From Octopus sinensis (taxonomy: Eukaryota), in assembly GCF_006345805.1 (NCBI RefSeq), contig NW_021835631.1, positions 1 through 26,913 on the forward strand: DNA of 26,913 nt, read 5' to 3'. Position numbers and translations under genes: made by a program. Numbering within the stretch: position 1 is the stretch's first letter; every line of letters begins with the position of its first letter. Below, one piece after another: positions 3,390-26,596 of this stretch. The notes beneath the pieces are model-generated. The model was not told where the DNA came from and made no database searches. It saw only the letters and a list, made by a program, of their open reading frames with translations.

Positions 3390-3559
3390 ATAGGCGCAGG
3401 AGTGGATCTGTGGTAAGTAGCTTGCTTACGAACCATATGGTTCCGGGTTCAATCCCACTGCGTGGCACATTGGGCAAGTGTCTTCAACTATAGCCTCGGG
3501 CCGACCAAAGCCTTGTGAGTGGATTTGGTAAACGGAAATTGAAAATAATAATAATAATA
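3390..3559 (+). mobile_element. tRNA-derived SINE family B, short form with (AAT)n tail and 16-bp TSD
   Basis: Head GGCGCAGGAGTGG, B-box GGTTCAATCCC, CORE-like TTGGGCAAGTGTCTT; perfect ATAATTAAATACCTGA at 3374-3389 and 3560-3575. Confidence 0.9.
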
Positions 3560-4228: not shown

Positions 4229-4512
4229 GGAAATGCAGCAGCAGAATCGTTGGCATGCCGGACAAAATGCTTCGTGACGTTTCGTCTGCTTTTATGGTCT
4301 CTTATGCTCTGAGTTCAAATTCTGCCGAAGTCGACTTTGCCTTTCATCCTTTCAGGGTCGATAAAATAAGAACCAGTTAAACACTGGGGTTGATGAAATC
4401 GACTTAATCCGTTTGTCTGTCCTTGTTTGTCCTCTGTGTTTAGCCCCTTGTTGGTAGTAAAGAAATAGGTATTTCGTCTGCCGCTACGTTCTGAGTTCAA
4501 ATTCCGCCGAGG
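4229..4512 (+). mobile_element. SINE family A, long-tailed copy fused to the partial body of a second copy
   Basis: GCAGAATCG A-box remnant; B-box GAGTTCAAAT at 4311 and again at 4493; tail GCCCCTTGTTGGTAGTAAAGAAATA joined to GGTATTTCGTCTG. Confidence 0.88.
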
Positions 4513-7022: not shown

Positions 7023-7100
<78 letters not shown>

Positions 7101-7103
<3 letters not shown>

Positions 7104-7223
7104 GCATGGTTCCGGGTTCAGTGCCACTGCGTGGCACCTTGGGCAAGTGTCTTTTACTGTAGCATCGGATCAACCTAAACCTTGTCCATGGATTTGGTAG
7201 ACGGAAACTGAAAGAAGTCCATC

Positions 7224-7274
<51 letters not shown>

Positions 7275-11634: not shown

Positions 11635-11783
11635 AAAGTTTACGAAAAAAACAAAAGACGAAGACAGGTGGTGTACAAAACAAACAGAAGTATTAGTATA
11701 ACGCTTAGGAATAGAAAAAGTATTTTATGTTTCGAGCCTACGCTCTTCTACAGAAAGGGACACAGAAAAAACAAGGAGAGAAA
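11631..11783 (-). mobile_element. Short repeat with hammerhead-like motif abutting (TA)n (Penelope pLTR/retrozyme-like)
   Basis: Reverse complement of 26443-26596; contains CTTT-CTGTAGA-A-GAGC-GTAG-GCTC-GAAA. Confidence 0.65.
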
Positions 11784-18747: not shown

Positions 18748-19083
18748 CCTTCTTTACTACTCTAGGCATAAGGCCCAACATTTTTGGGGACCGGGAACCT
18801 GTCCTTTAGATCGACCCAGTATGTAACTGGTACTTAATTTATCGACCCACAAAACGATGAAAGCAAAGTCGACCTCGGCGGAATTTGAACTCAGAACGCA
18901 AAGATAGACGAAATACCTATTTCTTTACTACCCACAAGGGGCTAAACACAGAGAGGACAAACAAGGACAGACAAATGGATTAAGTCGATTATATCAACTC
19001 CAGTGCGTAACTGGTACTTATTTAATCGACCCCGAAAGGATGAAAGGCAAAGTCAACCTCGGCGGAATTTGAACTCAGAACGT
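18748..19083 (-). mobile_element. SINE family A composite: long-tailed copy joined to a short-tailed copy
   Basis: GAATTTGAACTCAGAAC at 18881 and 19065; junction GACGAAATACC|TATTTCTTTACTAC near 18917. Confidence 0.88.
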
Positions 19084-19285
19084 GTTTTCCGTCATACAAG
19101 TCGAGGTTTGCGGACCAAAATTTACAGCCAAAATGTGAAGTCGGCTTATACACCAAAACAGCTCTGGAGGACCAAAAATTCTATGTGAAATGCAGCAAGA
19201 TTTGGAAATATAGTGACGCCACTTGAACATTTACTTTGCATGTTTACACCAGAGACTATGTCGACTTTTATGTTGGAAAATACTG
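19081..19285. mobile_element. ~205-bp MITE with ~24-bp imperfect TIRs (pogo/Tc2-like)
   Basis: CGTGTTTTCCGTCATACAAGTCGA (19081-19104) versus the reverse complement of 19261-19285, CAGTATTTTCCAACATAAAAGTCGA; internal GTCGGCTTATAC repeat. Confidence 0.6.
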
Positions 19286-19389
19286 GTTATCTAATTCATA
19301 ACAACGTCGCAATATTTCATTTATTGTCCCAAAAGCACTGGATTTTTCTTAACAAGCACTTTGAGGCACACACAAAAAGTTGATCTATA

Positions 19390-19597
19390 TTCTTTTCTAC
19401 TCGAGGCCCGAAACTTTGGAGAGGGGACCAGCCGATTACATCGACCCCAGTACGCAACTGGTACTTAATTTATCAATCCCGAAAGGATGAGAGGCAAAGT
19501 CGACCTCGGAGGAATTTGAACTCAGAACGTAACGGCAGACGAAACACCGCTAAGCATTTCGCCCGGCGTGCTAACGATTCTGCCAGCTTCTCCGCTT
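19390..19597 (-). mobile_element. SINE family A, full-length short-tailed copy
   Basis: Minus strand: A-box TGGCAGAATCG, B-box GAGTTCAAATTCC, central GTCGACTTTGCCTCTCATCCTTTCGG..AAGTACCAG (Meta-domain-like, from memory), tail GAGTAGAAAAGA. Confidence 0.9.
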
Positions 19598-19829
19598 TAA
19601 AAAGTTAAATATGTATGGCCACAAATTGGAGAGGAGTTGTTTGAACGTGTTTGACCTGCTGTCGTCACACAAAAACTAGAGATACCAGTCTTAAAGTTAT
19701 GTCTCATTAAAATCAGTGACTAGCGATTTAACAACGCTCGAATAAATAAGAGTAGAAGAATGACACCAGAGTTGAAACACAATCTACTGTCAAACGATAA
19801 CTTGCTCTGCTTTAGGCTCCAGCGTTGCC

Positions 19830-20020
19830 GGCGCTGAATTGGGTGAATCATTAATGCGTCGGAAAAAAACAAAAAAAACTGCGTGGTATTTATTCAAATC
19901 TTGCTGCGGTCAAATAGCTTCCATCCTTTCATTGTCAATAAAATAATGTACAAGTAAAGCACTGGCTTCAGTGGAATCAACTAATTTCTCCATCCTTCAA
20001 AATTGCCGGCCTTGTCCCTC
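19830..20020 (+). mobile_element. Old SINE family A copy
   Basis: ATTCAAATC...CCATCCTTTC...AAGCACTGG...AAAATTGCCGGCCTTGT. Confidence 0.6.
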
Positions 20021-20108
20021 AGTCAGACAAAATACTCTTCTGACTTCACATACCGCTTGCTTCGAACTTTAAATTTTGTCCCATCGATTTTGAGAAACTA
20101 TATATATA

Positions 20109-20340
20109 TATTTCTTTACTACCCGCAAGGGGCTAAACACAGAGGGGACAAACAAGGACAGACAGACGGATTAAGTCGATTACATCAACTCCAGTGCGTA
20201 ACTGGTACTTAATTTATCGACCCCGAAAGGATGAGAGGCAAAGTCGACCTCGGCAGAATTTGAACTCAGAACATAATGGCAGACGAAATACCGCTAAGCA
20301 TTTCGCCCGGCGTGCTAACGTTTCGGCCAACACGCCGCTT
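20109..20340 (-). mobile_element. SINE family A, full-length long-tailed copy ending in (TA)n
   Basis: Complete head and body plus tail GCCCCTTGCGGGTAGTAAAGAAATA followed by TATATA. Confidence 0.9.
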
Positions 20341-21163
20341 TATATTACGTTATTATTCCCCTCGCCTTCGCTAAGGCAGAGGTATAGTTTTTATTATTCA
20401 TTTTGTTCGTGTGTACAATGATGTGCGTATTCACCATTATTTTATTTATTTTATTCAATTTTAGAAAATTTGAAGCATGTCTTCGATAATTCAGGAGCGT
20501 ATTGAACACATTATGTGCGTGACTTTAGGCCCACCTTGTATGTTTGTCTTCATGTTCTTCTGCAGGGGCGGCTGGACTCAGTGTTCACAAGTATAGGTAG
20601 GCACGCCCTAATGAACCAATATCTACATGTTCATTGAATTTTGATGAAGAATCATTCATGGCTCAACGGAGAGGACAGCGACTGTAGCAACACATTCTGG
20701 AGTTCTGAGAGCAAGATAAAGCAAGCAAGATTTTCTGGTTCTCTATTCCATCCGTCTCCATCTCTAGTCGTCTTAACTTAGTCTTGCCACTGGATTGAAG
20801 TTGGTTACGGACGAGAGAATTAGGTTGACAATGTGTCACTCTTCTTCACATTAAACAAATTCACCACATGACGACATGGTTCTCGTGGCTTCGACAGACA
20901 AACACGATTTCTCTTCATATCTGGTGCAAATATGAACTTTTCCTTAAACACGTAATGACGTAATTTTTATGTTTGATACACTTAAGTAGAGTTAATAAAT
21001 ATTTACAAGTTTATATAAGTAATTAATTTGACTTCCGCTATAAAGTTAGATTATATAGATTAAAGCCGTTTCACAGTTTAGGCTATCTGATGTCATCCAC
21101 AGCTTTGATATGTCACTGGATTTCCCTCAGGAATTCTGTAGTGAGTTTATAATGAACGAAAGG

Positions 21164-21693
21164 AACGGAAAATGGAGTTCACTAGAATCTTTATTCTTCA
21201 TAATGATAGTTTCAACCCATCTTGCGTCGGTCCCTTGTGGGTGGAATACAGTACGACTGGTTGTGTTGCACCCTCCGGCGCAGATGCATCTCGTCTTGTT
21301 TTAAAGAAAATTCTCCGTTTCGCTTGGCGTGTTGTCGTCGCCAGAAGGTTGTTGGCTATAATGACACGGGATGGATACAATTTCTGGGTTATAACCGGTT
21401 AATGAGTCTGGCTATGAACTCTAGCCAGACCTATTAACTGATTGTAACCAGTAAATTGTATCTACCTTCTATCAGTATAGCCAACAACCTACTGCCGGCA
21501 ACAACCTGCCAAGCGAAACCGAGTATATTTAGCGAGGTAGCTTCTTTAAAACTAGACACCAGATGAGATGCATCTGCGCCGGAGGATGCAATACAACCAG
21601 TTGTACGGTATCCCACCCACAAGGGACCAATGCAAGATGGGTCGAAACGATCATTGTGAAGAATAAAGATTCTCGTGAACTCCGTTTTCCGTT
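21164..21693. repeat. Long imperfect inverted repeat (arms 251 and 272 bp, 7-nt spacer)
   Basis: 21164-21414 pairs with 21422-21693; centre GTCTGGCTA-TGAACTC-TAGCCAGAC; 7- and 14-bp indels plus scattered substitutions. Confidence 0.93.
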
Positions 21694-22492: not shown

Positions 22493-22790
<298 letters not shown>

Positions 22791-22791
22791 A

Positions 22792-25345
22792 GCGATTAGG
22801 CACAGCAAAGCACTAGCCATAGATAGAAATAGAGTAGAGGGTGAGCTAGTTAAGAAGCTAGAAGAGGCAATTAGAAGCGGCATCGCATCCGACGTTTTGG
22901 CGGCGAGGTTGGCCCTCGACCAACACTTCAACGCCAAACACGAAGGATGTGCTGTCAGAGCTAGGATGCGTGCTCTAAGGAACGAAGGTGTTGGAGCCGC
23001 GAGAGAGGCCCGGGTGGCAGAGGCGCAACAGGGCAAACAAAGCCACCATTCGGTCCCTGGTAGATGAACAGGGGCGCGAATTGCTCGAGCCAAGTAAAAT
23101 GTGTGAGGCCTTTCAGCAGCATTTTGCCCGACTGTTCGGAACGAGTGGAGGGCAAGAACGTAGGGTGGACTTCAGTGCCTACCTACATAGCCTACCACGA
23201 CTCTCGATAAGAAAGGCAGGGTGCTGCGAAGGTGCCATCACGGCGGCGGAAGTGCAGGAAGCGATGGCAGAATGCTCGAGGGACAAATCACCGGGTTTGG
23301 ATGGTCTACCCTACGAGCTTTACAATTGTATGCCAGACTTGTTTGGAGATCTCTTGGCGGCGGTGTACTGCAACTCGCAGCAAAACGGGAGCATTCCTGG
23401 TTTTGTGAGCCGAGGAGCCGTAACACTGCTGAAGAAAGATCTAAACAAGGGAAATGTAATAGATAACTTTAGGCCCATCACTCTGCTTAATGCAGACTTG
23501 AAAATTTTGGCCAAGTGGCTAGCCAAGAGGTTGGCGCTTGTCATCGAGAAACTGGTCGACAAGGCGCAAACATGCGCCGTGCCAGGCCGGACCATCCATG
23601 ACAACCTCCACCTGATGCGCTACATCATAGACAGAGTAGTTAACGAACCTGGCATGGGTGGGGCGCTGATCAATTTGGATCAATCGAAAGCTTTCGATAG
23701 GGTGGACCATCGATACTTGGAGGCGGTCCTCGGAGCGGCTGGCTTCGGTCCCGTCTTCCGCGGCTGGATAGCCGCCTTGTACAGAGGCATCCGTTCGGTA
23801 ATTCGCGTGAATGGACATCTATCGAGACCCTTCGACATCGCACGTTCGGTCCGTCAGGGATGCCCCCTCTCGTCGCTTCTATACGTATTGACTCTCGAGC
23901 CATTATTGCGGAAGCTGGCAACCTGAGAGGCACCCGCGAGAACTGGGATGCGGGACGAGCGTGTCTGCATATGCGGACGACGTCACCGTCATAGTGTCTA
24001 GCCACGAGCACATCGAGCCAGGTGGCGAGACACTGAAAAACTACGAAGCGGTGACAGAGCGAAAATCAACCGGAAAAGTCAGTGGGCTTGCGACTAGGCA
24101 CCTGGAGAAGCAAGCCCATGCCGTCCACCAGCGCCTCCGTCGTGGGACGCTGACCGACGGCCGGGTTGAGTTGCTCGGGGTCTGGTTTGGTCGGACCTCC
24201 AAGTGGAGAAGAACTGGAACGAGATAACGAGTAGGGGGGTCACTCTCGCCCGGCAATGGGCCGAGAGAAACTGTCCCTAAAGGTCGGGCGGAGGTGGCGG
24301 AACACGTACATCGCGTCCGTCATCTACTACCGCCTGACCGTCGTACCTTGTCCGACGACCCTACCATCACCAAACTACAACGCATTCTCTTTCGCTTCTT
24401 GTGGAAAGGATGCGTCCCGATGGTCAGGCGATCCATTTGCTGTCAACACCCTTTAAAAGGAGGGCTGGGCATGCTGTGGTTGATGATGCGCAGACACGCG
24501 CTGAGACTGCGACATCTCTGGCTCATGTAGACGACGGTGAACAGGTGGGTCGCCGTTTGTGAGGCACGCTTTCCCGCAGCTCGTCTCCATGACCGACTGC
24601 AGTCGTGGATCAAAAAGAGGCCGAGGAAGGGCGAATGGCACCGCGAGTGTCGCGTCGCCCTCAAGCAACTCTGCCGTCCTGGGTCGACTTTTGAGTGACT
24701 TCAACACAACCAAGCATTCTATAGGGGTTTAGTGGAGGGGAGGTACGACGACGAGCTCGGGGCGAACCTGGACGTCGACGAGGAGTACCTGACTCGCCTG
24801 TTCAGGACGACTTTCGGACCAGGGCCCATGGACAACTTCCAGAGATCCCTGGCCTGGCAGTGCTACCGAAAGCGCTACCCGTTGGGATAAGCTCTACAGA
24901 CACGGCTCGAGAAACACGGGGCCGACCTGCCGAGATGCGTCAGAGCGACGAAACCGTTTTCTGCACGCACTCGTGCAGTGTCCAACAATTTCCGACCTGT
25001 GGGCTTATGTCGAACAACTGCTGTCACGTGTGGGACGAGTCGGTTTATCACTGAGTCTATCGTCATATTGTCACGCCTCCTTCCTTCAAACGGGAAGGAA
25101 GAGCTATTTCATCATCCTTGTGGCTATGGCGAAAGAATGTATCTGGTGGACGCGTCTGAAAGAGGATTGAGACAAACACTTTCCTCTCGGTCAATCTTCT
25201 CATCAACTTCTTCAAGTACCACTTGAAAAGGAAAGTGAGAGTAGAGAGGCAAGTTTTGTCTAGCGAATGTTTTAAAAAAAGATGGGTGAATGTAGCAAGA
25301 ATGGCACGTATGAATGACGAAGCCACCTTGAGCATGATCCTATGA
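22792..25345 (+). pseudogene. LINE ORF2 remnant (endonuclease lost, multiple frameshifts)
   Basis: Open frame from the 5' junction (..EGCAVRAR..), RT motifs, YADD at 23970-23981, LLGVWFG, KGGLGM, frameshifted CPRC..ET.LHALVQCP at 24928-24984, stop at 25343-25345. Confidence 0.88.
22988..23926 (+). CDS. Reverse transcriptase domain fragment of LINE ORF2 (not a standalone gene)
   Basis: KSPGLDG, FRPITLLNADLKILAK, GRTIHDNL, NLDQSKAFDRV, VRQGCPLS..LYVL.LEPL. Confidence 0.8.
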   Translation: MLEPRERPGWQRRNRANKATIRSLVDEQGRELLEPSKMCEAFQQHFARLFGTSGGQERRVDFSAYLHSLPRLSIRKAGCCEGAITAAEVQEAMAECSRDKSPGLDGLPYELYNCMPDLFGDLLAAVYCNSQQNGSIPGFVSRGAVTLLKKDLNKGNVIDNFRPITLLNADLKILAKWLAKRLALVIEKLVDKAQTCAVPGRTIHDNLHLMRYIIDRVVNEPGMGGALINLDQSKAFDRVDHRYLEAVLGAAGFGPVFRGWIAALYRGIRSVIRVNGHLSRPFDIARSVRQGCPLSSLLYVLTLEPLLRKLAT

Positions 25346-25705
25346 ACCCAGAATTGAAACAGAGAGTTGCTTATTCGCAAAAAAAAAAAGAAATATAACA
25401 TGTGACTCCATTGACCGAGGTTACCGTGGTCTTTTCCGTAGGCTTTTCTTTCCACGGGTAACCTCACCTGTCCTCCCCTTTCCACTTCATATTGACATTT
25501 CTGTGATAACGATCCCTATTGATCAATTTTTTTTTTCCGCTCCCCCTTTTTTTTTAACCCCCCTTTTTTTTGTCCTCTTTCTCTCCTTTTACGATCCCTT
25601 TTGATCGAAACTCCCCCTTCCTTTTTTTTTTAAAACCTTCAAAAGAAAAGCTCTACCTTGTAATTTGTTCTATCTGTGTGCGCCCCTGTGTGGCTAATAA
25701 AGACA

Positions 25706-25762
<57 letters not shown>

Positions 25763-26442: not shown

Positions 26443-26596
26443 TTCTCTCTCCTTGTTTCTTTCTGTGTTCCTTTCTGTGGAAGAGCGTAGGCTCGAAACG
26501 TTAAAGACTTTTTCCCTTCCCGAGCGTTAAACTAATACATCTGTTTGTTGTCTACACCACCTGTCTTCGTAATTTGTTTTTTGGTGAATTCTTCCT
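26443..26596 (+). mobile_element. Second copy of the hammerhead-like short repeat abutting (TA)n
   Basis: CTTT-CTGTGGA-A-GAGC-GTAG-GCTC-GAA-ACGT-T-AAAG at 26471-26506; homologous to 11631-11783. Confidence 0.65.

Follow-up and report, generated by a model that had tools for sequence, protein, structure and literature searches.

Recurrent joining of a long-tailed octopus SINE to fixed positions within heads of its own family

Introduction

Does a short interspersed element (SINE) settle preferentially within members of its own family? The question is raised by an octopus contig of 26,913 nt, hereafter the window (i.e., the whole stretch of DNA that was analyzed), in which the long tail of a SINE twice ends at the same internal nucleotide of a tRNA-like SINE head. 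A first-pass annotation offered two readings of these loci, namely that a Tx1-tailed SINE inserts specifically into its own family or that a dimeric master copy exists. SINEs make up 11.6% of the Octopus vulgaris assembly (PMC13282606).

The SINE family and its junction in the window

The family is short, interspersed and multicopy, with 19 matches to its head-and-core profile in the 26.9 kb window. In sequencing run X1, 360,850 contigs align to one 300-base SINE copy, which is a count of contigs and not a copy number. Two tail types occur within the family, a short one (C, B2 and the older copies) and a long one (A1, B1 and D). The copies that bear on the junction are the following, with joining sites numbered on copy D.

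4229..4467, plus strand: A1, full-length long-tailed SINE with a diverged tRNA-like head, a core and a long tail from about 4403 (sequence and profile comparison)
4468..4512, plus strand: A2, 45-nt SINE head piece running from joining site 1 to just past the B-box-like arm (profile positions 43-89)
18918..19083, minus strand: B1, 5'-truncated long-tailed SINE with no head upstream (profile start at 63)
18750..18917, minus strand: B2, short-tailed SINE body beginning at joining site 1, its 3' end uncertain by about 8 nt
19385..19590, minus strand: C, full-length short-tailed SINE of the same family, representing the type of the host (sequence comparison)
20109..20342, minus strand: D, full-length long-tailed SINE ending in a TA run, with both joining sites intact (the cut of site 1 falls before 20292, that of site 2 before 20325)

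The head carries what we take to be A-box-like and B-box-like motifs. ARAGORN predicted 0 tRNA genes in the window, and an Rfam search gave 0 matches at the gathering score and, on 19350-20400, no tRNA match up to E 10; SINEBase defines a tRNA-derived SINE as one whose head is at least 60% identical to a tRNA (PMC3531059). A translated frame of the SINE matches predicted proteins of Octopus bimaculoides. Scans of other sequence collections yielded no copies of the SINE: a metagenome scan returned 15 loci, none of which went beyond the motif or a short chance extension, viral scans gave 0 and 0 matches, and prokaryote scans gave 0 and 1, the latter a rumen bacterial record.

Eight profile matches of the same family lie head to tail on the minus strand at 1580-2964, three or four of them being head-plus-half-core units about 145 bp apart, and clustering of the family beside its own copies may be general. 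The window holds other repeats as well. A different tRNA-like SINE family is represented by two plus-strand copies (3395-3545 and 7100-7225), both of which end at simple repeats. An inverted repeat with 136-nt arms that are 90% complementary and 258 nt apart (21164-21299 and 21558-21693) is likely a miniature DNA transposon, and a further repeat is present in two copies of opposite orientation beside TA runs (11646-11771 and 26457-26582, 87% alike over 126 nt).

The junction itself was recovered where the first-pass annotation had placed it: the 23-nt string that spans it is exact at 4457-4479 on the plus strand (locus A) and at 18906-18928 on the minus strand (locus B). With up to three mismatches allowed, the string has these 2 matches in the window; 100 shuffles gave none (mean 0.00, maximum 0). 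The periods between B-box-like motifs, 182 bp at locus A and 184 bp at locus B, are likewise as annotated, and the 12-mer downstream of the junction is indeed internal to the head: full-length copy D has it at 20292-20281 (minus), and copy C has it with a single difference at 19548 (minus). The statement that the long tail joins another SINE body needs narrowing at locus A, where the downstream piece comprises 45 nt only (4468-4512) and no whole body follows. Copy D (20109-20342, minus) is a third long-tailed copy that the annotation did not list; it lacks the junction and has a TA run at its end, which leaves the junction on two of the three long-tailed copies in the window (A1, B1 and D).

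Abundance of the joints in sequencing runs

Four of 24 sequencing runs (X1, X11, X15 and X22) were aligned to copy D (window positions 20070-20369); X18-X20, runs of small share, do not enter the counts. All run counts refer to contigs rather than loci and are minimum values; X1 is possibly the source of the window itself, and X15 is RNA only by guess. Among 19 of 1093 rows of loose ends, those at head position 20292 have the long tail as their consensus, in at least 800 contigs of X1 and at least 412 of X15 (agreement 0.66 and 0.95; median length 11 letters). For the loose ends at the tail end, position 20109, the first letters of the consensus are those of the head site, in at least 1219 contigs of X1 and at least 207 of X15 (agreement 0.42 and 0.58). 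Joints were evaluated in 15 of 408 rows, among which all six that go back link the tail end to the head on the same strand. Site 1 accounts for four of these listed rows (24 contigs in X1, 1 in X11 and 10 in X15) and is nearly missing from the rows listed for X11. In the raw run X22 only 12 reads aligned in 1934 million letters, compared with hundreds of thousands of contigs in the other runs, and one of the 12 shows site 1. Rarity of the junction, which the first-pass annotation had held against its own reading in advance, was thus not observed, the junction being common in contigs of X1 and X15. The fixed junction of the long tail to an internal position of the head is real and frequent.

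The tails do not all end there. More than half of the at least 1219 X1 loose ends at the tail end enter DNA that is absent from this window, with a median of 112 letters; many tails therefore enter other DNA, and the preference is partial. A survey of flanks at the protein level, using mis-predicted proteins, gave 10 matches, of which 5 reach the tail end and 0 carry the junction peptide; it was not counted, its outcome being biased by a stop codon that in this frame stands four codons away from the junction. One more of the mis-predicted proteins, P0125, may represent an old dimer of equal spacing.

A second recurrent joining site is located 33 nt upstream of site 1, with the cut before 20325 in the numbering of copy D, and is represented by two of the listed joint rows (15 contigs in X1, 6 in X11 and 3 in X15). 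Sites 1 and 2 have 6 of 10 letters in common, a level reached by 2 of the 150 other 10-mers of the D head and core. At a further joint, from 20324 to 20278 (depth 850 in X1 and 343 in X15), a new head starts 15 nt past site 1, which is what a 15-bp target duplication would look like; the copy in question may or may not be long-tailed.

Could such joints be by-products of tandem duplication, unequal recombination or deletion among neighboring head-to-tail copies? Same-strand clusters of the family do exist, as the 8 minus-strand profile matches in 1580-2964 illustrate. However, no overlap between the tail end and the site is present that would fix the breakpoint, 11 substitutions and 3 gaps in 93 positions separate the two halves at locus B, whose tails are also unlike, and hundreds of contigs show the joint at one and the same base. 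An origin by recombination is largely excluded and, in our judgment, very unlikely.

Relationship of the two halves

A single dimeric master should have left diagnostic mutations shared by both halves across loci, as the first-pass annotation itself pointed out, and these were not seen. Between A2 and B2, 5 of 45 positions are unlike, and a split at 20277/20279, which segregates in each of the three contig sets, places the two in different groups. Joint rows from 20275 to 20104 with 12 intervening letters and from 20268 to 20104 with 19 correspond to an exact cut before 20292 (5+12 and 5+19), and they carry two other head variants in register, one of which resembles old copies of the window. 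The lengths are unlike too, B2 being a short-tailed copy and A2 ending after 45 nt. Since the downstream halves belong to three or more head variants, all in precise register, and since A2 and B2 are unlike in length and letters, a dimeric master copy as annotated does not hold; because the downstream halves differ in the letters of their head variants, one dimeric master is inadequate. The fixed halves with common diagnostic letters that define a dimeric SINE family from one master are not what was found here.

The A1 head differs from those of C and D at 8-11 of 46 positions, and A2 differs from them at 3-4 of 45 and has retained 5 CpG; the upstream head at locus A appears older than A2, opposite to what one host split in two would show, but not significantly so (p 0.09-0.2). 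At locus B the core of B1 differs from that of D at 6 of 95 positions, and the core of B2 by 10 substitutions and 3 gaps in 93; the evidence that B2 is older than B1 falls short of significance (6/95 vs 13/96, p 0.15). The tails of A1 and B1 differ by 3 substitutions and 1 gap in 72 positions. A profile search revealed no host head upstream of B1, and no flanking duplication of more than 5 nt was seen at either locus; a 6-nt candidate duplication at locus B is possibly part of the short tail. A host head of matching age was found at neither A nor B, nor was a host on both sides together with a target-site duplication; one duplication-like joint was found in the contigs. For the idea that locus B lies within one end of a small DNA transposon that duplicated 6 bp, the arms matched at E 0.19, and the scores were 31 and 30 with and without the dimer. 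The approximately 200 bp directly upstream of B1 (19084-19284, minus) have weak 20-nt inverted ends and are possibly a decayed DNA transposon.

If not one master, a few composite sources, each born from one chance nesting, might have been amplified as dimeric SINEs, with the observed variety due to the number of sources and to gene conversion. Locus B has the appearance of a dimer that existed beforehand and was copied with 5' truncation. A1 and B1 also share a minority letter of the tail, T at D position 20145 (27% in X1, 3.5% in X11 and not present in D), which also fits descent from one composite source. X11 has few instances of this tail letter, of a pair of head variants described below and of the site-1 joints, all of which are common in the other two contig sets, X1 and X15. 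The depth of the head-to-head joint in X1 is far above the approximately 50 of unique flank, and complex SINEs constitute 13% of SINE families (PMC3531059). Against amplification stand the three or more downstream variants in exact register, the second fixed site, and the unlikeness of A2 and B2 in length and diagnostic letters. We consider it an improbable account of the data, and several independent origins at one base would in any case already imply a preference.

The LINE of the window and the shared tail

One LINE copy in the window was examined.

Approximately 22790..25707, plus strand: L1/Tx1-like LINE, truncated at the 5' end and frameshifted, with a (TATC)n array on either side; its last 50 nt resemble the long tail of the SINE

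The long tail aligns to the last 112 nt of this LINE with a score of 42, which 0 of 2000 shuffles reached, and this is the best non-SINE tile among 958; the SINE thus has its 3' tail in common with a LINE. The closest relative of the LINE, P0002, matches LINE-1 ORF2 with E 4e-50 vs R2 with E 4e-24, and full-length relatives combine endonuclease, reverse transcriptase and zf-RVT domains. By these matches the LINE is placed in the L1 superclade, whereas its finer placement as Tx1 is only putative. The best named relative of its reverse transcriptase is from Argonauta (70%). In O. vulgaris, L1-Tx1 families are represented by 80 listed consensus sequences. A relative in Patella (P0113 cluster) has many consecutive locus numbers, reminiscent of a tandem array.

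The label "Tx1-tailed" can therefore be kept in part: the tail does match the window LINE and the LINE is L1-like, but it is a (TATC)n array, and not the SINE, that surrounds the LINE. A partner LINE with the same target as the SINE was not found, the only copy examined having (TATC)n on both sides. Given its place in a microsatellite, the window LINE probably does not belong to the family that acts as partner at the head site; the arrays on both of its flanks suggest a microsatellite-targeting family.

The long tail is itself heterogeneous. Variants at 20119-20167 define a second long-tail type with four co-varying letters, whose share is 12-29% in X1 and X15 and 57-73% in X11; its end is closer to the 3' end of the LINE, and it may be the older form. 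Folding revealed no stable stem-loop in the long tail (z +0.9 to +1.5).

Proposed explanation

Any account must accommodate a junction at a fixed place and in large numbers, downstream halves of several head variants that keep register, the additional site, the tails ending elsewhere, and the likeness of the tail to a LINE. We propose a partial target preference for the own-family head, mediated by an L1/Tx1-like partner, combined with read-through copying of the resulting composites, an explanation to which we assign an about even chance of being correct. It retains from the first-pass annotation the targeting of own-family heads, which was refuted by neither of the two tests that the annotation had named; insertion "specifically" into the family is too strong a wording, given copy D and the more than half of X1 tail ends that lie elsewhere.

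According to this proposal, the long tail would recruit a sister family of the window LINE, whose endonuclease would nick the head at sites 1 and 2, with reverse transcription primed at the nick. Insertion would part the A-box-like from the B-box-like motif of the host, leaving one working promoter, the upstream one. The long tail contains no run of four T, and Pol III would therefore read on into the host. The read-through RNA, if copied onward, would give rise to copies without a host head, as at locus B, or with a short downstream piece, as at locus A. The preference is partial, other copies landing in TA-type repeats. A precedent for read-through comes from R1Bm, in which downstream target sequence helps accurate priming (as cited in PMC7265360).

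The same joints might instead be composites made at the RNA level, SINE RNA having been broken or entered at the edges of hairpin loops and the 3' end of a long-tailed RNA joined to the downstream fragment by ligation or by a template jump of the reverse transcriptase, a route already put forward for U6/LINE-1 chimeras. In the predicted fold of the C head, site 1 falls at the edge between loop and 3' arm of a 13-pair hairpin, and site 2 at the edge between arm and loop of a 6-pair hairpin. This fold is, however, no better than those of shuffles (z -0.85), and covariation among 10 window copies is within the range of shuffles (260 of 500), although the pairing of 75.5% is above that of slid controls (32-63%). 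At 20297 and 20292 the head has two variants whose shares are alike in each of three runs (14.2/14.6, 0.2/0.4 and 23.6/23.0%); if the two are linked, as is presumed, site 1 would be altered and the closing pair of the hairpin kept, U.G turning into G-C, which would speak for the RNA route.

Other features can also be set on either side. Locus B lacks a host head, and A2 extends from the loop edge to just beyond a stretch able to pair with the 5' end of the head, like the 3' half of a tRNA. Joining on the same strand with a complete upstream 3' end is a hallmark of known chimeras; those chimeras, on the other hand, have a variable and not a fixed downstream truncation (both points from PMC11838501). 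Downstream halves of the old type are easier to understand as DNA targets, and around A or B as a whole only 5-nt matches were seen, leaving aside the 6-nt candidate duplication at B. Weighing these points, we regard joining at the RNA level as unlikely.

A further reading is structure-guided homing. Both sites would be loop edges of conserved head hairpins, SINE RNA, either read-through or processed, would guide the joining, and a young, lineage-specific subfamily would escape by a compensatory pair at its own site 1 while disabling the promoters of its relatives. We hold this model to be improbable.

Should the target preference be confirmed, one subfamily would have gained very many harmless landing pads in the heads of its relatives. 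The promoters of its competitors would be split, and the composites would be liable to misfiling as new families or to mis-dating in repeat libraries.

Comparison with known systems

Octopus genomes reportedly contain the tRNA-derived SINEs OK, OR1 and OR2, described by Ohshima and Okada in 1994. Like the present family with its tRNA-like head, those elements are reported to be abundant and tRNA-headed. A 1995 title concerns a site-specific retroelement and bovine Alu-like sequences and may be a precedent.

A literature search, with subscription papers and Repbase reports mostly outside it, returned no description of this junction nor of a SINE aimed at its own family. Nothing on the junction appears in the available parts of PMC4824008, PMC4758252, PMC5786205, PMC3747384, PMC8967140 and PMC13295347, and the available parts of PMC13282606 and its supplement make no mention of nested or dimeric SINEs. 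Tx1-type elements that target other transposons are known, and a SINE that targets its own family, not found in the literature searched, would be the new element here.

Among dimeric SINEs as described in SINEBase (PMC3531059), two units are likewise arranged head to tail in one orientation. Unlike in those families, the second unit here lacks the first part of the head, varies in subfamily, tail and length, and has a second start site. The U6/LINE-1 and Alu/LINE-1 chimeras (PMC11838501) consist, as here, of a complete 3' end joined in sense to a 5'-truncated element. Sense orientation and a complete upstream 3' end were indeed found in 6 of 6 rows that go back among 15 of 408, but the variable 5' truncation of the downstream part was not, two fixed starts dominating the 15 of 408 rows. 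Unlike the U6/LINE-1 chimeras, then, the joints described here have SINEs as both partners and a downstream truncation that occurs at two set positions.

Several LINEs of this broad type have sequence-specific targets, and Dewa targets tRNA arrays. Tx1 inserts into Tx1D in Xenopus, Keno into U2 genes, and Kibi and Koshi into microsatellites, as reported in PMC4494074. Tx1, Keno, Kibi and Koshi are repeat-targeting members of the L1 superclade, and with Kibi and Koshi the window LINE shares its location in a microsatellite. These four are autonomous LINEs with near-fixed targets; the window LINE is only putatively Tx1.

The closest parallel is offered by crocodilians, in which SINEU and Tx1-Mar insert into two regions of Mariner-N4_AMi, and in which tandem SINEU-3, first mistaken for a subfamily, was made by sequential insertion (PMC4494074). 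The same source reports a weaker preference in some families (13-23% vs 90%) and regards an element as target-specific when more than 20% of its copies are flanked by the target (PMC4494074). Target-flanked long tails here number two of three in the window, and the contig counts of the runs are minima and not loci. Since a host on both sides with a duplication and a partner LINE with the same target were both missing, the present SINE is not classed with the Tx1 SINE/LINE pairs. It differs from SINEU-3 and Tx1-Mar in its tRNA-like head, in its landing place, which is its own SINE family and not a DNA transposon, and in that its 3' tail is common with a LINE, no LINE with this target having been found (one LINE in the window). 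It resembles them in that a SINE occupies fixed places of a dispersed repeat, that the preferred regions are two, and that the preference is partial.
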